DNA of 27,181 nucleotides from Candidatus Heimdallarchaeota archaeon (GTDB lineage: Archaea; Asgardarchaeota; Wukongarchaeia; Wukongarchaeales; JBHIFL01): positions 1 through 27,181 of the forward strand of contig JBHIFL010000055.1 of assembly GCA_046761065.1 (NCBI GenBank), in the 5' to 3' direction. Below, piece after piece: positions 2,958 through 17,021 of this stretch. The position numbers were made by a program, and so were the translations under genes. Position 1 is the first letter of the stretch. Each line of letters opens with the position of its first letter. Under the pieces are notes generated by a model. The model did not search any database, was not told the DNA's origin, and worked only from the letters and a program-made list of their open reading frames with translations.

Positions 2958-3242
2958 AGATTTCACCTCAAGATATTATTTACTAACAGACTTTGAGTTT
3001 TAAAATTCTTGCACTGCATAACCAAAAATCGTATGGAAGTATAATAATGGAAAAATTATTTTTGATATAGATTTTAAAGCCTTCTAACAGGTGTCCATTG
3101 CAATTAATTAGTCTATAATAGCATAGCAAGATCATTTAAGTTAACATAGAGTCAGAATTTACTAAGATGACATGAATATACCACATACGGAAAAATGCTA
3201 AGCCATATAAACATCTAGGTTTCATTATAGGTGGAATACAAG

Positions 3243-3980
3243 ATGAAAGATTCTTCTAATGATCTGAGCCATTTGAATCAACAAATCCGATCATTAGTTC
3301 TTAAGATGGGAGTAGACAAAATTGGTGTAGCGGACCTAACCCCAGCCAAGAAGTTTATCTCTTGGCAAGGTGGACCGATCCTAGATCCTTATCTTCGAGC
3401 AATATCTATTGGCATTCGCCTTTCAGATGCTGTGGTTGACTCACTTTTTTATCGAGACACGGTAGTGGCGCTAATGACATATGAACGTCATATATACGGT
3501 ATTGTAAACAAGCAACTGAATCAAATCGCCTTGCAAGTTGTCCGTTTGCTCCAACAAGCTGGTTGGCATGCCTTTCCGATTCATGCGTCTCAGACCATTC
3601 AAAAGGCACCCCACCACTTAGGCGTCTTTTCCCACAAACTTGCAGCAAATTTGGCAGGATTGGGGTGGATTGGACGAAGTTGTCTACTGATTACCCCTGA
3701 GTTTGGTCCTCGAATTCGCTGGGCTACTGTCCTCACAGATGTGCCGCTTCCACACGGAACACCCAAAAAGAACAAGTGTGATGATGATTGCAACTTTTGT
3801 GTTACTATCTGCCCTGCCCAAGCTTTCACAGGACGTCAATTTGATCCTTCTGAACCCCGTGAAGCGCGAATGGACGCTAATGCTTGTTATCAATACCTCG
3901 AAAAACGAGAAGAACAAACAGGCGCCCGTATTTTTGGATTATGTGTTGCTGCCTGCCCTATTGGTAGAAATAAACCATAA
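3243..3980 (+). CDS. Epoxyqueuosine reductase (QueG)/reductive-dehalogenase-like 4Fe-4S protein
   Basis: FSHKLAANLAGLGWIGRSCLLITPEFGPRIRWATVLTD signature, CDDDCNFCVTICP, and C-terminal C...FGLCVAACP. ATG at 3243 follows AGGTGG. Confidence 0.8.
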   Translation: MKDSSNDLSHLNQQIRSLVLKMGVDKIGVADLTPAKKFISWQGGPILDPYLRAISIGIRLSDAVVDSLFYRDTVVALMTYERHIYGIVNKQLNQIALQVVRLLQQAGWHAFPIHASQTIQKAPHHLGVFSHKLAANLAGLGWIGRSCLLITPEFGPRIRWATVLTDVPLPHGTPKKNKCDDDCNFCVTICPAQAFTGRQFDPSEPREARMDANACYQYLEKREEQTGARIFGLCVAACPIGRNKP

Positions 3981-4097: not shown

Positions 4098-4751
4098 CTA
4101 GAATTTTCCAATAAGTCTTCGAGATATTCGAACCGCTTCCTCCGCATCTGGACCATAGCCAGCTGCGCCAATCTCTTTCGCCCACTCTTCACTCACCGAA
4201 GCTCCCCCAATGATAACTTTGATTGTTTCTGCCAATCCTTCTCTCCGCAATGCCTCAATCACTTCCCCTTGCTTCAACATAGTCGATGTCATCATCGCGG
4301 AGAGGCCGAGGATGTCTGGGTTAAGTTCCTTAACTTTCTCCACAAAAGTCTGCGTAGGTACATCGAAGCCGAGGTCGATCACTTCAAAGCCGCTTGCTTG
4401 GAGCATCGTCGCTACCAGTTTCTTCCCGATGTCGTGAATATCGCCCTCGACTGTTCCCAATAGGACGCGGCCCAAATATTTGACTTCCAATCCTTGTCTT
4501 TGGACCTCCTCGATTAAGGGTTTCATTCCAAACTCCATCGCTCGGGCGGCTAACATTAAGTCGGGGAGGTAGAGTTCTCGCTTTTCAAATTGTTCACCGA
4601 TGTGGCGAATTCCTACGGCCAAGCCTTGCTCAATTGCCTCCACGGGATTGATCTCCGCTTCGAGCGCTTCTTTTGCGGCTGCCTCCGCTGCTTCTGAATC
4701 CCCCCGTTCTACAGCCATTCTTAGTTTTTCCAGAATTTCATCTTTAGCCAT
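4098..4751 (-). CDS. Methyltransferase-cognate corrinoid protein (MttC/MtbC/MtgC family)
   Basis: B12-binding motifs GTVEGDIHDIGK, LGLSAMMT and IIGGA, plus N-terminal cap domain (LYLPDLMLAA). AGGAG RBS favours ATG 4751 (MAKDEIL). Confidence 0.95.
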   Translation of the reverse strand: MAKDEILEKLRMAVERGDSEAAEAAAKEALEAEINPVEAIEQGLAVGIRHIGEQFEKRELYLPDLMLAARAMEFGMKPLIEEVQRQGLEVKYLGRVLLGTVEGDIHDIGKKLVATMLQASGFEVIDLGFDVPTQTFVEKVKELNPDILGLSAMMTSTMLKQGEVIEALRREGLAETIKVIIGGASVSEEWAKEIGAAGYGPDAEEAVRISRRLIGKF

Positions 4752-4780
4752 AATAGTTTCTCCTTTCGATTTGTTTCCCT

Positions 4781-6262
4781 TCATTCCTTCCGTTCTCTTT
4801 TTTCAATATCATGAATGATTTCTAAGACGTTCTTTTCGATGTCTTTGTCTAATGGTTCGGGTTCGTGGTCTCTTAGAAGCTGTTTGGCGTATTCTCGCGC
4901 GACTTGTCGCACACTCTTTTGGCCTTTCTTACGCCACCCTTCAAACAGTTCCCTATTAAAGACTTCAGGCAGGTAATGTTCCTTCTTGAAGTGCCTACGT
5001 GTATGTTCGGTAAACAAAAAGTTACCCATAGGTCCAACTTGATCAATTACATCAACTGCCAAGGTCTCATCAGATACTTCAATCCCATCGAGGATTCGGG
5101 CCACCATGCCTAGAGTGTCATGGTCTAATACCACTTTTTCGTACCCAACTGCTAAGACGCCGGGTTCGAGGGCTCCCGTGGTATTTAAGATGAAGTTATG
5201 GCCAGCTAGCGCGGCCATCAGAACTCCAAGTCCGGTCTCCACTCCAGCTTGGTAATCGGGGATGATCGCATCCGTTGGTCCCCCTGTTCCTCGCGAAGGA
5301 ACCCCATAGAAGCGAGCCATTTGGGCAGAGGCCACATTGAGGAGGTACGCTTCAGGACCGCCCAAGGCGAACGCTCCTGTCCGCATATCTACGATGCTAC
5401 TGACTGTGCCATAAAGAAGTGGAGGTCTTCGTTTCGATGAAGCGGCCATTTGGGCAATAACTGCGATCGATAAGAATTCAGCTCCTTGTTGAGCTAAAAC
5501 TCCTGCGAGTGTGGCAGGACCTGCTGCGCCACCCATGATTTCAATTGCAATCAAAATGGGTAACCCTTGTTTGGCATAAACAATGGTGTTTTCGGTGAGC
5601 TCTCGAGGGAGGGTTAAGGGAGGAACGCTCATTGGCCAATGCCACGCGATTGGTTTCCTTCGGAGCTCCTTAATTCCCCCCATTACCGCGGCTTGAAGTC
5701 GAATCGTATCTTCAGCTCGTCCGGTGAAGATGTCGAAGGCTAAACCGGGTTTATCCGTATTTTTTAGGCGTATTAAGAATCTGTGGGCCATGGCCAAGTC
5801 CTTTGGCATTGTCATCTGCTCGACGGTGCCCTCCACGCAGCCGTGAGGGATATGGATGTAAGGGAGCGCATCACCGAGTCGCACGAAGTTTTCAACATCC
5901 TTGAACGTTGCTTGGCGCCGCTGTCCGTCAAAATCGAATACCATTGGCGGCAACCCAGCCATAGAAAAATGAACACGGCTATTTTCAAACTTGCATTTTT
6001 TCTTGGGATTCCGTCCATATAATGTGAACCGTGGAGGGGTCTTACGGATCGCTTCTTCGCATAAATGGGGCGGAATTTTGGCTAGTTGGTTGTCATAATT
6101 AATGTCTGCACCCGCTTCGGCCAAAATCTGTAACGCATCTTCAGAAAACACCTTGACACCAGTGTGCTCTAAAATGTCAAGTGAAGCATAATGGACATCT
6201 TCAATCTGATTCTTGTCCAAAACCTTCATCCGACCCCCACGGAGGCTTTTCACCCAAGTCAC
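4781..6262 (-). CDS. MttB-superfamily (trimethylamine methyltransferase family) corrinoid methyltransferase, pyrrolysine-free, paralog 1
   Basis: About 493 aa with family motifs HYASLDILEHTGV, MGGAAGPATLAG, VDMRTG.F..G.PE, PD.QAG.E, DETLA.DVI..VGP.G.FL..EHT. No in-frame TAG. GTG at 6262 after GGAGTG matches the paralog's start (track start 6283). Confidence 0.93.
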   Translation of the reverse strand: MTWVKSLRGGRMKVLDKNQIEDVHYASLDILEHTGVKVFSEDALQILAEAGADINYDNQLAKIPPHLCEEAIRKTPPRFTLYGRNPKKKCKFENSRVHFSMAGLPPMVFDFDGQRRQATFKDVENFVRLGDALPYIHIPHGCVEGTVEQMTMPKDLAMAHRFLIRLKNTDKPGLAFDIFTGRAEDTIRLQAAVMGGIKELRRKPIAWHWPMSVPPLTLPRELTENTIVYAKQGLPILIAIEIMGGAAGPATLAGVLAQQGAEFLSIAVIAQMAASSKRRPPLLYGTVSSIVDMRTGAFALGGPEAYLLNVASAQMARFYGVPSRGTGGPTDAIIPDYQAGVETGLGVLMAALAGHNFILNTTGALEPGVLAVGYEKVVLDHDTLGMVARILDGIEVSDETLAVDVIDQVGPMGNFLFTEHTRRHFKKEHYLPEVFNRELFEGWRKKGQKSVRQVAREYAKQLLRDHEPEPLDKDIEKNVLEIIHDIEKRERKE

Positions 6263-6390
6263 AGATAAATCCACTCCGTTCACCTGAAATTAGACAATCA
6301 ATAAATACTTTTTGTGATAACATTCCCAAGTTAAAACAATGTATTGAAAGGTGAAAACTTAGTGAATGATAGTCAACGGCTTATGGTAAC

Positions 6391-6440
6391 ATCCAGTCTT
6401 GGATTTTTTCATCGAAACTATCCAAATTTGGATTTTTCAT
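6391..6440. promoter_or_regulatory. Tandem palindromic sites ATCCA-N4-TGGAT, each followed by a T-run and CAT
   Basis: ATCCAGTCTTGGAT (6391-6404) and the perfect ATCCAAATTTGGAT (6420-6433), 29 nt apart, upstream of MttB paralog 1. Confidence 0.5.
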
Positions 6441-6749
6441 TTTTAAGATCGATATGAGACGAACTTAATAATGTTAATAGAATGTATAACTGCACTAAGG
6501 CATAAAAACGTTTGATAATCCTAGCGACTTGGCACCTTTAGTTTTCATCAACCCAACTGATAATAGATGATGCGATTAAGTCATCAAACCTGTTGTGAAA
6601 AGTTTGTACTAGTAATTTATAAAGTCGAATTGTCGACTAATAATGCATCAGGGAGAACAATGGAAAGTTGGAACAAAAGATGAATTTGTAGAAGGATTCT
6701 TTCCGAATCATCGGCAACTCCAGGTTTTTTGAATTCGAACGAGATTAGT

Positions 6750-8231
6750 TCAGCTTTTTAGGTCTCTTTTTTCAATTTCAGTGATGACTTCTCGGACACG
6801 TTTCTCAATATCGGGGTCCAATGGCTCTGGTTGATGTTCCTCAAGGATCTTTTTCACGCGAGCACGAGCCACTTGGCGAACCGACAACGAACCGGCCTTC
6901 AACCATCGCTCCCATAATTCGCGATTAAAGATCTGCGGGTAATAGTGAGACCGAAAGTGCTCCCTTGTATGTTCAGAGAGCAAGAAATTGCCGCCTTTTT
7001 CATTAATCACTTCATCAATTACTTCTGTTGCTAATGTTTCCTCAGAGACCTCAATACCGCCCATAACTCTTGTGACAAGGCCCAACATATCATTATCTAT
7101 AACAATCTTCTCATAAGAGATGGCAAGAACGCCTGGCTCCATTGCTCCGGCGGCGTTATAGATATAAGTATGACCAGCAAGAGCTGAAAGTAATATAGTG
7201 ATCCCACTTTCAATCCCACTCTGGGCATCCGGAACAATCGCATCAGTTAGTCCACCCGTCCCTCGGCTAGGGATATTATAGAATCGAGCGAGCTGAGCTG
7301 TCCCGACATTGAGTAACCCAGTTTCAGCGGTACCTAGGCAAAAAACGCCGGATCTCATATCAACTACTCCCGAGACGGTGCCATACATGAGGGGAGGCCG
7401 GTATTCCTTGGGTGCTGCCATTTGAGCGATTACTGCCCCTCCGAGGAACTCAGCATTCTGCTGTGCAAGAATTCCTGCCAAAGACGCTGGACCACTTGCT
7501 CCACCCATGACTTCAGGTGCGAAGAGGATTGGGAGCCCTTTCTTTGCGTAAACTATTGCATTGTCGGTCAATTCTTTGCTATAAGTCAAAGGACTGGTCG
7601 GGTTATGCCAAAACCATGTCATCGGCTTTCTTCGTAGTTTTTGAATATCTCCATCTAAAACAGCAAGTTGAAGGCGAATCGAATCTTCAACTCCATCACG
7701 AGCAACGTCGATGGCCGGACCGGGCTTATTGGTGTTTTGGATTTGAATAAAAAATCGGCGTGCCATCGTTACGGTTTCAGGCAGCGATACTTCCTCGACA
7801 GTTCCTTGCAGACATGGAGACGGGCAGTGGATGTATTCCAAGGCGTCACCAAGACGGATGAAATTCTTAATATCCTCATGTGTCCCATGCCGACGTTGCC
7901 CATTCAGATCGAGGACAAATGGAGGGGCACCAGCCATACCAAAATAGACGCGTCCCTGTTCAAACCGATATTTGAGTTTATCTCGTCCATAAATATCAAA
8001 TTTTGAAGGGGTTTTTCGAATTGCTTCTTCTACTATATAAGGAGGAATATGAGCATGTTTTGCTTTATGGTTAACATTAGCACCCGCGGTCTCTAGGATC
8101 TTTAATCCTTGTTCAGACAAGACAGTTACGCCTGTCGTATTGAGAATTTCTAAACTTGCATAGTGAATCTCTCTGATTTCGTCTCGATTGAGAAGTTTCA
8201 ATCGGCCTCCCCGAATATCTAGCAACCCCAC
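6750..8231 (-). CDS. MttB-superfamily corrinoid methyltransferase, pyrrolysine-free, paralog 2
   Basis: 493 aa with the same motifs (HYASLEIL, NPTSPL, MGGASGPASLAG, VDMRSG, PDAQSG.E, EETLA.EVI). GTG start after GGAGGAGTGA. No in-frame TAG. Confidence 0.93.
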   Translation of the reverse strand: MGLLDIRGGRLKLLNRDEIREIHYASLEILNTTGVTVLSEQGLKILETAGANVNHKAKHAHIPPYIVEEAIRKTPSKFDIYGRDKLKYRFEQGRVYFGMAGAPPFVLDLNGQRRHGTHEDIKNFIRLGDALEYIHCPSPCLQGTVEEVSLPETVTMARRFFIQIQNTNKPGPAIDVARDGVEDSIRLQLAVLDGDIQKLRRKPMTWFWHNPTSPLTYSKELTDNAIVYAKKGLPILFAPEVMGGASGPASLAGILAQQNAEFLGGAVIAQMAAPKEYRPPLMYGTVSGVVDMRSGVFCLGTAETGLLNVGTAQLARFYNIPSRGTGGLTDAIVPDAQSGIESGITILLSALAGHTYIYNAAGAMEPGVLAISYEKIVIDNDMLGLVTRVMGGIEVSEETLATEVIDEVINEKGGNFLLSEHTREHFRSHYYPQIFNRELWERWLKAGSLSVRQVARARVKKILEEHQPEPLDPDIEKRVREVITEIEKRDLKS

Positions 8232-8405
8232 AGAAAATCACTCCTCCCTCCACCCAAAACTTGCATAGAATAAAACGCTTTTCATGTATCATTTGAATGG
8301 GTTAGCAGCTATATCAATTGTATTTTAGACCTAGAAACGAATTTTTCTCATTAAAATTAAGATTTTCGTATTCAAGGATCAAATACCCAATGAGGTGATA
8401 TAACA

Positions 8406-9302
8406 ATGTATGAGATATCCAACCAAAAGATTGTAGAAATTGGGGGTGTTACTATAGGGGGAATTCCTGGACAAAACCCGACAGTTCTAATCGGATCAAT
8501 ATTCTATCATGGTCACAAAATTGTTGAAGATGCTAAGCATGGACAATTTGATCGAACTAAGGCTGAATCAACAATCAATTTACAAGAAGAGTTTTCTGAA
8601 AAAACCGGCAACCCTCACATGGTGGATATCATAGGTACAACACCCCAAGCTATACAGACCTTCATCGAGTTTGTTGCTAATGTGACTGATGCACCTATCA
8701 TGATTGATGCTCCAACACCCACTATCAGGGTAGCTGGGTTACAATATGCGAAAGATACGGGTTTGATCAATCGTGTTGTCATCAATTCTCTTATTTTCCC
8801 TCCTCAAGAAGAAGAACTTCGAGCCATCCGAGAAGTCGGATTGAAATGTGTTGTTCTTCTTGCACTCAACACGCGAGAGTTCACCACGAAAGGGCGGATT
8901 GATGTTGCTAAAGAGCTGGTGAGAGTGATGCAAACCTATGGAATTGATAAACCACTTTTAGATACCTGTGTCCTAGATATACCTAGCCTTGGGATGGCGT
9001 GGCGTGCGCTATACCTGTTGAAACATGAGTTAGGACTGCCTGTTGGGTGTGGCGCTCATAATGCAATCAACACATGGAAAGGTCTCGATACAAAAATGGG
9101 GAAGCAGGCAAGGAACTCAAGCATTGCTTCAGTAAATGCGATTACAGCAGCTTTAGGTGCCGATTTTGTGTTGTATGGGCCGATTGAGGATGCAGCATAT
9201 GTTTTTCCTGTTGTGGCTATGACAGATGCGGCTTTTGCTCATCTCCTTATGGAAAGTGGAAGTCTGATTGAAAAAACCCACCCTCTATTTAAAATAGCTT
9301 AA
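8406..9302 (+). CDS. mtrH: Stand-alone MtrH/MtgA-family methyl-corrinoid:pterin (H4MPT/THF) methyltransferase
   Basis: IGGIPGQNPTVLIGSIFYHGHKIV, GLPVGCGAHNA, GADFVLYGPIE and C-terminal HPLFK. GAGGTGA RBS. No other mtr subunits nearby. Confidence 0.9.
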   Translation: MYEISNQKIVEIGGVTIGGIPGQNPTVLIGSIFYHGHKIVEDAKHGQFDRTKAESTINLQEEFSEKTGNPHMVDIIGTTPQAIQTFIEFVANVTDAPIMIDAPTPTIRVAGLQYAKDTGLINRVVINSLIFPPQEEELRAIREVGLKCVVLLALNTREFTTKGRIDVAKELVRVMQTYGIDKPLLDTCVLDIPSLGMAWRALYLLKHELGLPVGCGAHNAINTWKGLDTKMGKQARNSSIASVNAITAALGADFVLYGPIEDAAYVFPVVAMTDAAFAHLLMESGSLIEKTHPLFKIA

Positions 9303-9430
9303 AAAAAACGGAAGATGGTGTATTTGATTTAATCACCTTCATTTTCCTAAATCGAACTGATGTAAGTAATATTGGAACGAGCTGAGAAAAAGTGACAATT
9401 CTATCTATTATAGATTAAGATCAGTTGTTT

Positions 9431-10456
9431 CTAAGAAATTACAAGTTTAACAGCTTCTACCATGTTTCGTAATTTCTTCAACACTATCTGGTAGGGTTTA
9501 TCGCCTGGAAAGGCTCCTAGTAAGGGTCCAAAGCCGCAATCCGGCTTGATCATCATATTTTCTGCCCCAAAAGCCTCCATTCCTTTTCGGATCCAATCCT
9601 GAATATTTTCTACACTTTCCACAAAGGTCTCTTCCCCTTCCCCGCCATATATGGTCTTGATAGTTCCAAATGCAAGCATTTTGTCGTGCTCTTCGAGGAG
9701 CTTGCGGTCGAAGAGAGTAAAGTTGTGAGGCGAACTCCGGAATTCATGATCAACGATTCGAACATCTGTTTCCAAGAGCAAATCACGAAGTAAGGGAGAA
9801 ATTTCTCCACATACATGAATAGAAGGGATCGCATCTATACCCTCTTTCGCACGATTCAACTGATGAATGATCATCTGGATCGCTTCGTCTGTGTTCAGAT
9901 CCAGTTGCAGGTCAAAGATCGTGTTTCTTGCCCCTACAAGAAGACCAAGAAGAGGTTCATCGATGGATACAATGTCACATTCCTTGGAATAAGCCTTAGC
10001 AATCATGTTTACATAGGTAACGATGTTCTCACAAAGCTTCGGATATTTTTTGAAGATGTCAACAAGGTTCCATGGAGAATCTTTTTGAATATCTTCCAGC
10101 CGCATATGCGTCATTATCGTAAAAGGACCAGTCACACACGCTCTAAGACCTGTAACAGGCGCGTCTAGATCTTCCATCACTTTAACCATAAGTCGAACAG
10201 GGTGAATAATAGAAGGCGCAGGAGTAGGGGGAGGGGTAAAGTCGGCCCTTATGAAGTAGAGTTTGTTTCGTTTTTCAAGTTTCTTGGCATTTACTAGTGG
10301 ATCCAGAAACATAGCATGCATATCCCCTTGGGGATAATTCACAAAATCTATGCCAACTTCGACTAGATCCCGAACAACACGCCGAATAGTGGCATCCGAA
10401 ATTTCCAAGGGGACACTCCCGACAACGGTCGTTTTCATAGCTAAATCGTTTTGCAT
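9431..10456 (-). CDS. Short 'core' MetE-type (Zn-dependent homocysteine methyltransferase) methionine synthase
   Basis: About 341 aa with the catalytic barrel only: TTVVGSVP, VTGPFT, SIDEP, Zn ligands HVC, DHEF and PDCG, ending KLRNMV.A. AAGGAGAGG RBS favours ATG 10456. Confidence 0.8.
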   Translation of the reverse strand: MQNDLAMKTTVVGSVPLEISDATIRRVVRDLVEVGIDFVNYPQGDMHAMFLDPLVNAKKLEKRNKLYFIRADFTPPPTPAPSIIHPVRLMVKVMEDLDAPVTGLRACVTGPFTIMTHMRLEDIQKDSPWNLVDIFKKYPKLCENIVTYVNMIAKAYSKECDIVSIDEPLLGLLVGARNTIFDLQLDLNTDEAIQMIIHQLNRAKEGIDAIPSIHVCGEISPLLRDLLLETDVRIVDHEFRSSPHNFTLFDRKLLEEHDKMLAFGTIKTIYGGEGEETFVESVENIQDWIRKGMEAFGAENMMIKPDCGFGPLLGAFPGDKPYQIVLKKLRNMVEAVKLVIS

Positions 10457-10478
10457 ACCAAACCTCTCCTTTTCGAAC

Positions 10479-10527
10479 ATATAAATATTTTTTGAGAAGA
10501 CCTCGCGCGCCCCAAAACTTTTTAAAT
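10479..10527. promoter_or_regulatory. Back-to-back archaeal BRE/TATA-like promoters for the metE-like gene (-) and APC permease (+)
   Basis: + strand AAAACTTTTTAAAT at 10514-10527; - strand AAAAAATATTTATAT at about 10479-10493. Confidence 0.5.
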
Positions 10528-10581: not shown

Positions 10582-12201
10582 ATGGGTGAAAGCGAAGAGC
10601 GAATATTCCTCCGAGATGCGACAGGACTTGTCAGGGAGGCTGGCTGGACGGATATCCTCACTTTTGCCTCATTAAATATGAGTTGGGGACTCAGTGCCAT
10701 GTGGTTGATCCTTTGGGGACCTTGGTATGGTCCGGGGGGTAGCCTCATCCTAGGCACATTACTAGTTGTTATCCCAATGATCTTTGGTTCACTTGTCTGG
10801 GCATTCATGGCAACAATCATGCCCCGAAGCGGCGGTGACTTCATCTTCAACAGCCGGGCCCTACATCCCCTCCTTGGGTTCATCTCCAGCCTTGGATGGG
10901 TTGCAGTGAACTTCATCTGGTGCGCGGTTCTCGCGGCCTACATTCCTGAGCAGGGGATTGCCCCGCTACTTTACATAGCTGGTTTCGAATCAGCGGCTGA
11001 ATGGATACTCTCATCAGGCGGGGTTTTCATTATCAGTGCTATTATCATTGTTGCCTCAGCTGCTCTTCTATTGTTCGGCATGAAACCCTACCTCTGGGGT
11101 CAGAAGATTCTATTTGGCTTTGGTATTTTGATGTTCATCATCCTCTTCGGGATCTTCGCGGCAAACGATAATGCAGATTTTATCGCGGCATGGAACGCTG
11201 TCGCTGGTGCAGGTAACTATGAGGCAATCAGCGCTGAAGCCCCAGGATACATGGCATCTGAATATGGATACACCTCACTAGCTTTCTCGTTTCCAATGAC
11301 ACTGGCCTTGATCCCAGTGGCCTTCTGGGGGATAGGTTATCCCTATTTCGCCGCTTATGTTGCTGGTGAAACCAAACGCGTCGAAAGAAGCGCACTCATC
11401 GGTATTCCTGGCGGATTGATCCTATGTGGGCTCTCATGGATTATCCTTATTCCACTTGTTCAAAAAGTAGTCAGTTACGAATTTCTCACATATGCTGCAT
11501 TCGCTTATGGTGATGGTTTATCTAGTTATACCCTCCCCTTTGCTCCAATGTACCATGTGTTCGGCATCCTTCTCACACCGAACTCTATGCTCAGATTTCT
11601 CATCGGTTGGGGGTACATCTGCTGGTTGTTAATCTACCCCTTGTATTCGATACTTGGACAAACCCGGATTGCCCTTGCCTGGGCGTTTGATCGTCAAGCA
11701 CCCTCACTCTTCGGCGATGTTAGTGAAAAGTGGCACACTCCAGTAAAAAGCACCATCTTCTTCACGGTTGGAGGCCTTATCTTCTTGGTCTTGTACTCAT
11801 TTGTAATCCATGACATGCTGGCTGGCTTCTCCGCAATGGTCCCCCAGATTATGACAGTCTTCATGATCACAGCGATCGCGGCGATTGTGCTTCCATACCG
11901 CAAACGAACAAAAGCCCTCTACGAGGCCTCGCCCGCCAGTAAATACAAGATTGGGTCGATTCCGTTCATCACAATCTGTGGGGTCATTTACTTCGGTATC
12001 CTTGCCGTGTGCCTTTACTATTACTTCAGCAACCCGTGGCTTGGTGCATGGGATCCCACCGATCCGATAAAGATGACAGCGTTCTACACCATCATAGCAG
12101 TCTTCGTCTTTGGAATTATTTACTATTTCATCAATCGAGCGTACTGGCGGAGAAAGGGTATCGATATCGAGCTAGCTGCTAAAGAACTTCCTCCTGAGTA
12201 G
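10582..12201 (+). CDS. APC-superfamily amino acid/polyamine permease (archaeal type)
   Basis: N-terminal FLRDATGLVRE, MPRSGGDF, AGETK, R...AWAFDR..P, HTPV, and C-terminal GIDI....KELPPE. At least 12 hydrophobic segments. AGGAG RBS. Confidence 0.92.
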   Translation: MGESEERIFLRDATGLVREAGWTDILTFASLNMSWGLSAMWLILWGPWYGPGGSLILGTLLVVIPMIFGSLVWAFMATIMPRSGGDFIFNSRALHPLLGFISSLGWVAVNFIWCAVLAAYIPEQGIAPLLYIAGFESAAEWILSSGGVFIISAIIIVASAALLLFGMKPYLWGQKILFGFGILMFIILFGIFAANDNADFIAAWNAVAGAGNYEAISAEAPGYMASEYGYTSLAFSFPMTLALIPVAFWGIGYPYFAAYVAGETKRVERSALIGIPGGLILCGLSWIILIPLVQKVVSYEFLTYAAFAYGDGLSSYTLPFAPMYHVFGILLTPNSMLRFLIGWGYICWLLIYPLYSILGQTRIALAWAFDRQAPSLFGDVSEKWHTPVKSTIFFTVGGLIFLVLYSFVIHDMLAGFSAMVPQIMTVFMITAIAAIVLPYRKRTKALYEASPASKYKIGSIPFITICGVIYFGILAVCLYYYFSNPWLGAWDPTDPIKMTAFYTIIAVFVFGIIYYFINRAYWRRKGIDIELAAKELPPE

Positions 12202-12230: not shown

Positions 12231-12358
12231 AACAATTGTATCCATATCACAAAAAGAACCAATTACTCGTAATCTTTTCGAGGTGGACATTAAAAAGGTC
12301 ATGACACCCTCCACGTATCAAATTAAATATGATGTTTATGAGGGATAGGGGAAAAGGT

Positions 12359-13126
12359 ATGAGTTCTCCAGAAAAATTAGTCCTTGAAGCTGAGCGAGCG
12401 GTTAATGCCGCCTCAGAGAGGAATGTCATCCTACGGGTGTTCGGAGGTGTCGCGATCAGATCCCACTGCCCATCAGCCAGCAATCCACCGTTACTACGAA
12501 AGATCGCGGATGTCGATTTCTTTGGGGTGTCAAAGCAATCTGGTGAGATCCAAAAAGTCTTTAAGGAGCTCAATTACATCCCAGCTGTACGGTTTAATGC
12601 ACTGCGGGGGCGATCAAGGCTTCTCTTTTACGAACCGAAGACAAACAAATCACGAGACATCTTTCTTGACACTTTTGATATGTGCCACCGTATTGACCTA
12701 CGCAAACGGCTTACATTAGAACCGTTCACGATCCCACTCACTGATCTCTTCCTCACTAAGCTTCAGATCATCGAGCTGAATGAGCGTGACTATAAAGATC
12801 TTATCTCACTTCTATTAGATCATGAGGTTGGAAAGGCGGAAACAGAGGAGATGATCAATGGGGCATATATTGCCACACTCTGCGCCAAAGACTGGGGTAT
12901 GTGGAAGACCTTTACGAGAAACCTTGAGTGGACCACTTCTTATGTTGAGAAAAGTCAACTTACACCACCTAACCAGAAGCGGGTAAAGATGCGAATCGAT
13001 AAACTCCAAGAAATAATCGACACAAAGCCCAAATCAGTCTCATGGAAACTTCGTAGCGCCATAGGTGAGCGTATGCTCTGGTACAACCCGGTGGAGGAAG
13101 TCGCCAAAACGATTAAATTTGAGTAA
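12359..13126 (+). CDS. Nucleotidyltransferase-family (Pol-beta fold) protein, uncharacterised
   Basis: LRVFGGVAIRSH...ADVDF (hGG-x-DxD), later DIFLD and DL.LTKLQI....ERDYKD. Start 12359 chosen for its purine-rich RBS (track start 12329). Confidence 0.75.
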   Translation: MSSPEKLVLEAERAVNAASERNVILRVFGGVAIRSHCPSASNPPLLRKIADVDFFGVSKQSGEIQKVFKELNYIPAVRFNALRGRSRLLFYEPKTNKSRDIFLDTFDMCHRIDLRKRLTLEPFTIPLTDLFLTKLQIIELNERDYKDLISLLLDHEVGKAETEEMINGAYIATLCAKDWGMWKTFTRNLEWTTSYVEKSQLTPPNQKRVKMRIDKLQEIIDTKPKSVSWKLRSAIGERMLWYNPVEEVAKTIKFE

Positions 13127-13218
13127 TGCAATGGGACGCTTCCCACTATTCCAAGGATTTATCATCCAAGCGAGATATCACAAGCTATTGTAATGGCTAT
13201 AACTGGAGGAACACAATA

Positions 13219-14166
13219 TTGTTGAAGATTTTTTTCGCTTCAGATGTCCATGGATGCGAAGTGTGCTTTCGGAAGTTTCTAAACGCAGGAAAGTTCTACC
13301 GGGTTAACATAGTAATGCTTGGGGGGGATCTCACAGGCAAGATGGTCGTGCCAGTAGCTAAGCAATCGGAAGGATCATATGTCGCAACTTTTTCAGGGAG
13401 AGAATGGGTAGTTCGCACCCAGTCTGAAATTGATACTCTTACCAAACTGATACAAAACAGTGGTTACTACCCTTATATTACCACTGAAGAAGAGATGCGA
13501 ACACTGCAAAGTAATAAAGAGAATGTGAAAACGCTGTTTTCAGAGTTGATGGCTTCAACAATGCAGCGATGGATCCAGTTTGCTGAAGACCGCCTCCGTG
13601 ATGCCAACATCCGCTGTTTCATTACACCTGGGAATGACGATCAATTCGTTATAGATCAGGTGATTAACGAATCTGATTTCGTTGTAAACCCGGAAGGACA
13701 GGTTGTTAACTTGGATGAAGGGCTTGAAATGATCAGCACTGGCTTCACTAACCCAACGCCATGGAACACTCCACGCGAACTTCCCGAAGAGGAATTGGAA
13801 GAAAAGATCGAGACAATGATCGCCCAAGTAAAGAACATGAATTCCTGTATATTCAACCTCCACTGCCCTCCGATTGGCACGATAATCGATCAAGCTCCTA
13901 AACTTGATGAAACCATGAAGATTGTTCGTAAATCGGGACATGTGGTCATGATAGACGCGGGAAGTCAAGCAGTACGTAACACTATTGAAAAACATCAACC
14001 TCTACTTGGTCTTCACGGGCATATTCACGAGGGAAAAGGCATCGCACAAATCGGAAGGACGATCTGTCTCAACCCGGGCAGCGAGTACGGGGAAGGAATC
14101 CTGCGAGGTGTCATCGTTGCTTTGGACAAGGCAAAAATTAAAAGCCACCTCTTCACATCCGGATGA
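13219..14166 (+). CDS. Calcineurin-like metallophosphoesterase (Icc-related)
   Basis: SDVHG, GGDLTG, PGNDD, HCPP, LHGHIHE, NPGS. GGAGGA RBS precedes the TTG at 13219 (track start 13126 is probably over-extended). Confidence 0.88.
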   Translation: MLKIFFASDVHGCEVCFRKFLNAGKFYRVNIVMLGGDLTGKMVVPVAKQSEGSYVATFSGREWVVRTQSEIDTLTKLIQNSGYYPYITTEEEMRTLQSNKENVKTLFSELMASTMQRWIQFAEDRLRDANIRCFITPGNDDQFVIDQVINESDFVVNPEGQVVNLDEGLEMISTGFTNPTPWNTPRELPEEELEEKIETMIAQVKNMNSCIFNLHCPPIGTIIDQAPKLDETMKIVRKSGHVVMIDAGSQAVRNTIEKHQPLLGLHGHIHEGKGIAQIGRTICLNPGSEYGEGILRGVIVALDKAKIKSHLFTSG

Positions 14167-15589: not shown

Positions 15590-15599
15590 CAGCTAAGAC

Positions 15600-16250
15600 C
15601 AAAAAAAGGCAGAAAATTCGAATGGCAACATTTTTCAGTTTTCCAAAATAAGTCCGGAGGCCATTCACATTAGGTTGGTTAAAGATCTCGATGGAATCCG
15701 CTAAATCTTCAAATTTGTCCTTGACTGCATCCTTAGTCGCTCAAATGAGTGGTTTTTGTAGTTCTTTGAAGTTAATCTTCCGAAGTTCGTGGATTTTATC
15801 GTGTTCCTCATTTAACGTTCGCACGATGGTTTCCAAATAATTTGTCTTATGGAATCGATTTCCGCAAGAATTTGGTCTACGTCTTGCTTAGAAGGAGGAG
15901 ATCCTTTCATCCGTTCCAAAAATCCGAAATCACGGCGAGCGACCTATGAGTGTCTTATAAGACTTTCATAATTTTTTTATGACTTGCTGTGACAACATAT
16001 TTCACGCGAAACGCCAAGATATCCTCTTCCGTGCCCCGATAGAATGATGAGCGTACCTTATTCCGGTCAATGGAAGATCCCGGGTCACAGGGGGCCATTG
16101 TTTGGTGGGGAGGGTTCAAGACCTTGTGAAATTTCTTAGTGAGTACAATCTCAAAAGACAATTATTCGGGATTTAAGAATTCGTAGGATACGTTCTTGAG
16201 TTTGTAACTCGACCTTGTGATATGCGTTTTTTCCCATTTTAGAAAGGGAT
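15600..16250 (-). pseudogene. Probable decayed gene of unknown function
   Basis: Protein-like charged helical segments in different minus-strand frames (e.g. QDVDQILAEIDSIRQII; ETIVRTLNEEHDKIHELRKINFKELQKPLI*ATKDAVKDKFEDLADSIEIF), broken by stops and frameshifts. Confidence 0.3.
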
Positions 16251-16263
16251 CTATTTTTGAATT

Positions 16264-16487
16264 TCAGGTCTTGCACTGGTAGCGCTGGCGGCCTTGCTTG
16301 GTCTTGTCAGCTTTCTTGATGTTTTTCTTGGGTTGCTCCTTCTGAAGCTTGGCGTAGTCAGGGCATGCTGCGTTTGGGCAAAATTCCCCAACATGAGCAA
16401 AGGGTGACATGATCTGCCCTCCTCCCAAGGTTACCGCAGAAGGATATAGGATCATATTTCCTGGCAACACTCTTGAAGGAGACCACC
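16264..16487 (-). mobile_element. Truncated IS1-like insertion sequence remnant (left end + Zn-ribbon start of transposase)
   Basis: GGAGGAGG RBS, then MSPFAHVGEFCPNAACPDY...NIKK..KTKQGRQRYQCKT*, an InsA-like Zn ribbon that stops at the 4th Cys. Putative terminus GGTGGTCTCC begins at 16487. Locally higher GC than the flanks. Confidence 0.65.
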
Positions 16488-16509
16488 AAATTATTGAAAT
16501 AATAGGTTA

Positions 16510-16656
16510 ATGTACTTATATGGACTGGGCCTTGGATCTGCTTATACGGTGCAATCAGCCCTGTTAATCGATATCATTGTTTTTCAAGATAGAAACTCGA
16601 CTTTCTCGGTATTTACTACTTGTTTTAATATTGGGATCTCCGTAGGTTCGATCGGA
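16510..16656 (+). pseudogene. Fragment of an MFS transporter paralogous to 14417..15589
   Basis: 16519-16656 aligns without gaps (138 nt) to 15329-15466: YGLGLGSAYTVQSALLIDI...RNSTFSVFT..FNIGISVGSIG vs YGLGFWSAHSVQSTLVIET...RSSALAVFT..FDFGFSIGSIG. Confidence 0.8.
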
Positions 16657-16684
16657 AAGTTCTTCTCAGATCTAATAAAAGAAT

Positions 16685-16745
16685 TAAAATCGAATTTTAT
16701 GAGTTTCGAATGGGATTCAAAGAAAACCTTTTAAATTCGAAATTT
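16685..16745 (+). promoter_or_regulatory. TA promoter with paired palindromic operators
   Basis: TAAAAT-CGA-ATTTTA (16685-16699) and AAATT-CGA-AATTT (16733-16745). The second overlaps the BRE/TATA-like GAAAACCTTTTAAAT. Confidence 0.55.
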
Positions 16746-16766
16746 TATTAAAAGTCGGGTGATCGA

Positions 16767-17021
16767 TTGATTTCAGAAGAATTCGGAAAAGTCGGGTCAA
16801 AAGGGGAACTCTATCCTCCAATAAAGATTCGAAAAGCCTTGGAATTAAATCCTAATACCCATATTCGTTTTTTTGTATCCCCTAAAGGTTACCTTATTGT
16901 AGAAAAAGTAATCTCTGTGGAAGAACTCCTAGCAAAACCAGCCTTAGCAAAAGTCTCGGCAGAAGAGATTGAAAAATTATCGGAAGCAATGCAGCGACAT
17001 GGTGAAAATGAATTTGATTAA
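16767..17021 (+). CDS. AbrB/MazE/SpoVT-family antitoxin (VapB-like)
   Basis: KVGSKGELYPP.KIRKALEL.P swapped-hairpin motif with an acidic tail. Overlaps the downstream PIN gene. Confidence 0.8.
   Translation: MISEEFGKVGSKGELYPPIKIRKALELNPNTHIRFFVSPKGYLIVEKVISVEELLAKPALAKVSAEEIEKLSEAMQRHGENEFD

Follow-up and report, generated by a model that had tools for sequence, protein, structure and literature searches.

The locus described here raises the question of whether an archaeal methionine synthase may draw its methyl group from a small corrinoid protein encoded beside it. It lies in a stretch of 27,181 nucleotides (contig JBHIFL010000055.1 of Candidatus Heimdallarchaeota archaeon, GCA_046761065.1; hereafter the window), in which two paralogous MttB genes, a corrinoid protein gene, a divergent MtrH-like gene and a convergent, short MetE-like gene stand side by side. 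All five had been recognized in an initial annotation, and ORF listing together with profile searches confirmed each as an intact open reading frame (ORF) with a match to its family and unchanged coordinates. We consider it reasonably probable that positions 4098–9302 encode a corrinoid-dependent methyl-transfer system and that the MetE-like protein acts as a methionine synthase fed by a corrinoid protein. A narrower proposal, that the donor would be the very protein encoded at 4098–4784, is advanced tentatively from sequence, as plausible and somewhat short of probable.

The host, uncultured and found at a hydrothermal vent, is an Asgard archaeon, as had been supposed: the nearest MetE-like homologues (84–87% identity) come from metagenome-assembled genomes (MAGs) labelled ‘Candidatus Heimdallarchaeota archaeon’, and the next tier is labelled Promethearchaeota, Thor-, Hod-, Hermod- and Odinarchaeota. 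Its genome (4.4 Mb in 234 contigs, 91% complete, 8% contamination) is the sole member of its family among the genomes compared, with two relatives from the same order and other neighbours at the level of the phylum. Synteny in close relatives was read from just three metagenome contigs (L129, L130 and L143), which share one contig name though their sizes differ. Logan contigs of four runs, all from a single hydrothermal-vent study, span the MttB–MtrH–MetE-like region in X1, X3 and X4, and the junction between the MetE-like gene and the neighbouring permease gene in all four runs. Because these independently assembled contigs bridge the gene junctions, an assembly chimera was ruled out.

A probable corrinoid-dependent methyl-transfer system

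The corrinoid protein gene (4098–4784, minus strand) encodes a 228-aa protein of the MttC/MtbC/MtgC type, the predicted methyl carrier, with cap and Rossmann domains (PF02310, B12-binding, 103 bits; PF02607, B12-binding_2, 67 bits). Its score on TIGR02370 was above the cut-off (222.4 against 215.3) and its scores on the MtgC and MtbC equivalogs were below theirs; the DxHxxG motif is present as GDIHDIG. The ATG of this gene and the stop codon of MttB1 overlap by 4 bases, and translation of the corrinoid gene is coupled to that of MttB1. On the other side of the MttB genes, and divergent from MttB2 at a distance of 174 bases, lies the MtrH-like gene (8406–9302, plus strand), a putative methyl-corrinoid:pterin methyltransferase (MT2). 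Its product matched PF02007 with 287 bits and exceeded the NF002142 cut-off (328 against 287), while falling below both the MtgA equivalog NF047990 (241.4 against 550) and the true-MtrH model TIGR01114 (251.1 against 271.4). No other mtr genes were found in the window. The divergent pair of MtrH and MttB2 genes is kept in the relative L130; across 80 MttB loci, an MtrH gene lay within 10 kb of MttB in 11 and a corrinoid gene was linked to MttB in 33. Three of the four vent runs are two bases shorter at position 9301, in a poly-A tract that starts at the stop codon of the MtrH-like gene, and the TAA itself is intact.

This gene set fits the system of methyl-donor:corrinoid methyltransferase (MT1), corrinoid protein and MT2 with pterin output that had been proposed for the locus. 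The genome also contains Mch, an MTHFR homologue and CdhD/E, the latter being the Wood-Ljungdahl pathway’s corrinoid iron-sulfur protein (CoFeSP), and thus the methyl branch of that pathway can receive a methyl group. Family membership, conserved catalytic residues and the lack of pyrrolysine are read here from homology, next to a gene order that is directly observed.

In all, the genome encodes 10 MttBs, 6 small corrinoid proteins, 3 MtrH-like enzymes and 2 activases of the RACo/RamA type. The description of the cluster as self-contained had to be given up on this last count: both activases (PF14574) are sited on other contigs, C108 and C2, with none in the window, and the cluster is therefore not self-contained for reactivation. 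The activase on C108 is full-length (Fer2, linker, middle and ASKHA domains) and belongs to an operon (C108:3000–9000; L210) of URO-D, corrinoid protein, RACo, MtrH-like and URO-D genes. This operon is of another type and resembles O-demethylase/methoxydotrophy (Mto/Mtv-type) systems.

Two MttB paralogues without pyrrolysine

MttB1 (4781–6283) and MttB2 (6750–8231), both on the minus strand, are by homology non-pyrrolysine enzymes of the MttB superfamily and the predicted MT1 components of the cluster. They are 59% identical and matched PF06253 with 383 and 346 bits, respectively, against a cut-off of 25, over model positions 29–493 of 500; on TIGR02369, the equivalog of pyrrolysine (Pyl)-type MttB, they scored 399.9 and 399.4 bits against a cut-off of 525. 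In-frame stop codons are absent from both genes and from all 10 MttB genes of the genome. At the pyrrolysine position, MttB2 has Leu, aligned to X of 7xcl, and MttB1 has Pro within the homologous GGPTDA. With uninterrupted ORFs and these residues in place, the view of both enzymes as pyrrolysine-free stood; read-through at pyrrolysine was ruled out by the absence of an in-frame TAG. A 93%-identical homologue of MttB1 is 490 aa long, and the true MttB1 start is probably near position 6253.

The solved structure that best matched both proteins was MtgB of Desulfitobacterium hafniense (277 bits for MttB1 and 256 for MttB2), above MttB of Methanosarcina barkeri (216 and 240 bits). Glycine betaine is held in MtgB by Y97, R312, H348 and F356 (PMC13080624). 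Read from alignments to 9yce, in which the numbering is the native one minus 2, these positions are G, R, N and V in both MttBs. With R312 as the one binding residue kept out of four, glycine betaine was rejected as their substrate.

In the MttB tree, MttB1, MttB2 and a third paralogue on contig C54 form a lineage-specific clade, the nearest database relatives of which (41–51% identity) are unnamed or called ‘MttB family’ and come from Bathyarchaeia, Hadarchaeum, Methanomethylicia, Thermofilaceae and Thermoplasmata. As non-pyrrolysine members of the superfamily, the two agree with the description of Asgard and TACK MttBs as a ‘previously uncharacterized group’ (Valentin-Alvarado et al., 2024, PMC11291895). 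Relatives carry separate orthologues of the two proteins (93% and 74% identity in the case of MttB1, about 90% in that of MttB2), which means that the duplication is old enough to have been maintained. The two genes are separated by an AT-rich spacer of 466 bases (6284–6749) with a TATA-like TTTATAAA, in which the ORF listing gave no ORF of 80 aa or more; an Rfam search of the window, spacer included, returned zero matches. MttB1 and the corrinoid gene are probably expressed from a promoter of their own within this spacer.

A core MetE-like protein as probable methionine synthase

The MetE-like gene (9431–10480, minus strand) is convergent with the MtrH-like gene, 128 bases away. The ORF spans 349 aa. 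Since its homologues have been annotated with 341 aa, translation probably begins at M9 (position 10456, the end coordinate of the initial annotation), which gives the same length. The protein matched PF01717 (33.4 bits against a cut-off of 21) and gave no match to PF08267, that is, it has no N-terminal folate-binding domain. On NF002119, the MesA equivalog, it scored 100.4 bits against a cut-off of 258. The wider family of MetE-like proteins of about 340 aa to which it belongs reaches 83–97 bits on this model, compared with 258–295 for the genuine NF002119-type proteins that other Asgard lineages carry, and in the Mes tree a long branch (1.13, 100% support) separates the family from those MesA-like Asgard proteins. 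Its members are spread across Asgard archaea, Thermoproteota, Hadarchaeota and Bathyarchaeota, together with some labelled Thermococci.

Core synthase sites comprise zinc ligands at H641, C643, E665 and C726 (Escherichia coli MetE) and homocysteine residues at S433, E484 and D599, with Gln replacing E484 in MesA and MesC (PMC7857596). The corresponding residues of the MetE-like protein, H222, C224, E246 and C315 for zinc and S22, Q51 and D174 for homocysteine, are invariant among 20 aligned family members, Q51 being the same replacement as in MesA and MesC. A phmmer search of the MetE-like protein against PDB sequences found nothing. The predicted structure (pLDDT 91.5) is best matched by the folds of MesD (3RPD) and the C-terminal barrel of Thermotoga maritima MetE (TM 0.66–0.71); MtaA and UROD folds rank lower, with 4AY7 among the matches. 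The earlier identification as a core methionine synthase without a folate domain thus stands, with every catalytic residue in place and activity as a prediction.

The MetE-like protein is the sole PF01717 match in the genome, and the MetH/BHMT-type homocysteine domain (PF02574) had no match in this 91%-complete assembly. S-adenosylhomocysteine (SAH) hydrolase is present. Together, these three observations make the MetE-like protein most likely the organism’s methionine synthase, as predicted from gene content. A gene for de novo homocysteine synthesis (HcyBio) was not found in the genome. A weak second match to the MetE-like profile, on contig C17 (66 bits), belongs to no Pfam family and was not counted as a methionine synthase.

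All four vent runs contain two versions of a 121-base stretch at 10160–10280, where the MetE-like gene encodes the N-terminal part of its product; the two differ at 8 positions. Since both occur at comparable depth, two strains or alleles coexist.

Recurrent but exceptional proximity to MttB

If the MetE-like protein works with the neighbouring corrinoid protein, some trace of this relationship might be sought in gene order elsewhere. The divergent pair formed by the MetE-like gene and the APC-superfamily permease gene (10582–12201, plus strand) is kept in the close relative L143, in the order <APC MetE-like> MttB>, where a co-oriented MttB gene begins 170–190 bases downstream of the MetE-like gene and is sister to the clade of MttB1, MttB2 and the C54 paralogue. 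In this contig (L143:353–3094) the permease and MetE-like genes are each split into two frames, which reflects either assembly error and low quality or decay. Comparable arrangements occur in an Asgard family (f18; genomes G037, G027 and G046, loci L121 and L122), with the order CP>MttB> <MesA-like, where CP is the corrinoid protein gene and the pair ends 30 bases from the synthase; in L071 and L077, with the order MetE-like> <MttB; and in two high-GC contigs (L202 and L203), where a Meth_synt_2-like gene lies directly upstream of MttB. The MttB and Mes trees place these cases apart, with at least four independent origins of adjacency between a core synthase (Mes) gene and MttB. Given a rough chance expectation of 0.1–0.3% per lineage for direct adjacency, the recurrence looks real, yet it is the exception rather than the rule.

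Several observations weigh against a functional tie. We collected the neighbourhoods of the wider MetE-like family from 80 loci or genomes carrying members at 32–40% identity. Of these loci, 57–60 show a housekeeping block of Snf7, a 665-aa zinc-ribbon protein, dehydroquinate synthase II, L35Ae and GH57 genes. MttB was nearby in 2 of the 80; neither corrinoid nor MtrH genes lay inside 10 kb in any of them. Linkage of the MetE-like gene to the cluster is thus not conserved. Among 16 Asgard genomes with the MetE-like family, MttB is absent (E ≤ 1e-60) from 12 and present in 4. In the close relative L130, the position beyond the MttB2 and MtrH pair is occupied by a corrinoid gene together with another MtrH gene, and the MetE-like gene does not adjoin them. 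The convergent orientation of the MetE-like and MtrH-like genes in the window means, moreover, that they are not transcribed together. Each of the 16 Asgard genomes carrying the MetE-like family encodes at least one small corrinoid protein, but so do 42 of 44 Asgard genomes overall, and given this near-universal presence the co-occurrence is proof of nothing. The genome also encodes CoFeSP, the donor predicted for MesB and MesC (PMC7857596); its presence and the family’s usual genomic context favour a donor other than the small corrinoid protein. Finally, with 91% completeness and 8% contamination, another methionine synthase may have been missed. As a separate observation on this context, a stand-alone Snf7/ESCRT-III gene shares the conserved block with the 340-aa MetE-like gene across Asgard archaea (e.g., L006:11729–12379 and L022:7916–9913).

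Proposed mechanism and alternative explanations

In the mechanism that we propose, MttB1 and MttB2 would transfer a methyl group from an N-methylated compound, which judging by the binding residues would not be glycine betaine, to the small corrinoid protein in its Co(I) form. From there, the MtrH-like enzyme would pass it on to a pterin, most likely tetrahydromethanopterin (H4MPT), and would probably work in both directions, while a RACo-type activase encoded on another contig would provide reductive reactivation in trans. The MetE-like protein, as a folate-independent core zinc enzyme, would transfer the methyl group of a methyl-corrinoid protein to homocysteine regenerated from SAH, with the neighbouring corrinoid protein, or its paralogues, as the physiological donor. 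The MtrH-like, corrinoid and MetE-like proteins would then resemble a MetH taken apart, to which the MttBs add a further methyl input. From these relationships we infer the class of substrate, which way the methyl group flows, which pterin takes part and, most of all, the link between the corrinoid and MetE-like proteins. Taken furthest, the MttC-type corrinoid protein would, in what is also the most parsimonious model, be a methyl hub, loaded by the MttBs from an imported methylated amine or by the MtrH-like enzyme from methyl-H4MPT and unloaded to pterin or homocysteine, and the MetE-like proteins would form a fifth family of core synthases, a possibility about which we are doubtful.

The main competing explanation is that the adjacency is coincidental, the locus being an ordinary amine-to-pterin system beside which a housekeeping MetE-like gene, its product fed by CdhD/E, has drifted. 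The housekeeping surroundings of most family loci, the scarcity of MttB near them, the convergent orientation in the window and the lack of MtrH/MetE-like adjacency in L130 are all as this explanation would have it. It also agrees with Price et al., who predicted MtrA as the donor for MesA and CoFeSP for MesB and MesC (PMC7857596). CdhD/E occurs in the host and in 13 of the 16 Asgard genomes with the MetE-like family, but it occurs in 19 of 28 without the family as well, so that its co-occurrence is unspecific and does not discriminate. Coincidence fits poorly, too, with adjacency of core synthase and MttB genes in at least four independent lineages, given the low chance expectation, and with L143, in which the MetE-like gene is again found by MttB despite rearrangement. 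Price et al. further speculate that some core-synthase paralogues use other corrinoid proteins (PMC7857596), and gene order in the host lineage favours the small corrinoid protein as the donor. We consider coincidence rather unlikely on balance. The earlier claim of two methyl outputs is supported for the pterin; for methionine it is plausible from gene order, with CoFeSP as the rival donor.

Two further explanations turn on the permease, which might import either the methyl donor or a sulfur amino acid. The MetE-like enzyme might run in reverse or act on another thiol, as an MT1-type enzyme that demethylates imported methionine or an S-methyl compound onto the corrinoid protein and so feeds the MtrH-like enzyme. 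The conserved divergent pairing with the APC permease gene in L143 and the missing HcyBio gene would suit such a role, as would the thiol-linked corrinoid methyl transfer carried out by zinc enzymes of the same clan (MtsA/MtaA type), one fold match being 4AY7. However, the residues and fold are those of MetE rather than MtaA, the demethylation of methionine is thermodynamically unfavourable, and the protein is the genome’s only candidate methionine synthase in an organism whose SAH hydrolase yields homocysteine in need of remethylation; we judge this explanation very improbable. Similarly little credence is due to the idea that an imported small molecule, for instance S-methylmethionine or a betaine, serves the MetE-like enzyme as immediate methyl donor for homocysteine, in the manner of MmuP/MmuM or BHMT and with no corrinoid involved. 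The pairing with an APC permease, kept in L143, does recall mmuP–mmuM, but we know of no MetE-family enzyme that uses donors of the S-methylmethionine or betaine type. The characterised core enzymes use methylcobalamin (PMC7857596), and the permease belongs to a multi-copy module with a nucleotidyltransferase (NTase) and a phosphoesterase that occurs in at least five other places of the genome without a MetE-like gene. Against all three explanations, we retain that of a MetE-like methionine synthase fed by a corrinoid protein, at the strength given at the outset.

Neighbouring genes in the window

The permease (AA_permease_2, 69 bits) is followed, in the same orientation, by genes for a nucleotidyltransferase-fold protein of 265 aa and a metallophosphoesterase of 346 aa (12329–14166, plus strand). 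The former has no Pfam match and is placed by the Atlas among ‘nucleotidyltransferase family’ clusters; the latter shows weak Metallophos matches. Paralogous sets of this APC–NTase–phosphoesterase trio were located by tblastn in three to four places on contig C57 and on C39, C46 and C64, with phosphoesterases at 40–52% identity. Homologues of the APC permease and NTase genes adjoin MttB in another Asgard genome (L125) and in two metagenome contigs (L149 and L151). With five to seven paralogous copies elsewhere in the genome, the idea of an MttB-specific module was given reduced weight.

At the other end of the cluster, a QueG/RdhA-like protein with two 4Fe-4S motifs is encoded convergently on the corrinoid gene (3231–3980, plus strand). 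It has Fer4_7 and Fer4_16 matches and scored 63.7 bits on TIGR00276 (QueG), below the cut-off of 200. This neighbour is kept in the close relative L129 (83% identity) and in just one other of the 80 MttB loci, and is not conserved among the more distant ones; four weaker paralogues occur elsewhere in the genome (C81, C37, C59 and C83). Elsewhere in the window, a stretch of about 1.4 kb (15590–16968) is free of ORFs of at least 90 aa on both strands and gave no match in Rfam.

Comparison with known systems and significance

Core methionine synthases are reportedly the subject of work by Schroeder and Thauer in 1999 and by Deobald in 2020. To our knowledge, their natural methyl donor, predicted to be a corrinoid protein, has never been shown experimentally. 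The MetE-like protein resembles MesA, MesB and MesC in consisting of a single domain of the MetE C-terminal type of about 340 aa, in its H-x-C…E…C zinc site and its Ser/Gln/Asp homocysteine site, and in its anaerobic Wood-Ljungdahl host in which no other methionine synthase was found; it differs from most MesC in having Cys, not His, at the position of C643. The family lies outside the coverage of Price et al., in whose text Asgard archaea are not mentioned (PMC7857596).

The MT1/corrinoid/MT2 part of the locus is well supported and already known in kind for Asgard archaea: MttB-like, MtbC-like and MtrH genes have been reported together in Atabeyarchaeia and Freyarchaeia (Valentin-Alvarado et al., 2024, PMC11291895). 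Those clusters share with the present one the three protein families, the absence of pyrrolysine, the proximity of MttB and MtrH and a non-methanogenic Asgard host with a Wood-Ljungdahl pathway. The present cluster differs in its two tandem MttB paralogues and its convergent core MetE-like gene, and comes from another, sparsely sampled order; methionine synthase is not mentioned in that study. The same succession of MT1, corrinoid protein and MtrH-fold pterin MT2 is found in the MtgB/MtgC/MtgA glycine betaine:tetrahydrofolate system of D. hafniense, from which the present system differs in scores below the NCBIfam MtgA and MtgC cut-offs, in its archaeal host and in a pterin that is probably H4MPT. 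The layout of the cluster is lineage-specific.

In MtgBCDE of Ruegeria pomeroyi, betaine demethylation and methionine synthesis share a single corrinoid subunit, as has been proven genetically (Mausz et al., 2025, PMC12478193). Common to both systems are an MttB-family demethylase, a shared corrinoid protein, a bidirectional pterin methyltransferase and a homocysteine module, the sharing and the direction being proposals in our case. Ruegeria, however, is bacterial and aerobic and its MtgE is of the BHMT/MetH type, whereas the enzyme described here is of the MetE type and its proposed link to the corrinoid protein comes from gene order. In view of these studies (PMC11291895, PMC12478193, PMC7857596), the concept of two methyl outputs is less new than the initial annotation assumed.

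If the corrinoid protein and the MetE-like enzyme are not linked, the locus is a further example of the published non-pyrrolysine MttB systems of Asgard archaea. With the genes for the synthase, a small corrinoid protein, the enzymes that load it and a pterin methyltransferase side by side, the locus offers a concrete set of five proteins for reconstitution. A corrinoid protein acting as a methyl hub would give archaea an equivalent of bacterial MtgBCDE, assembled for the most part from non-homologous components, and would reveal the physiological donor of methyl groups to core methionine synthases, which has long been sought. Should the link hold, the methyl group of Asgard methionine could come directly from environmental methylated amines, and osmolyte turnover in vents and sediments would be tied to Asgard core metabolism.

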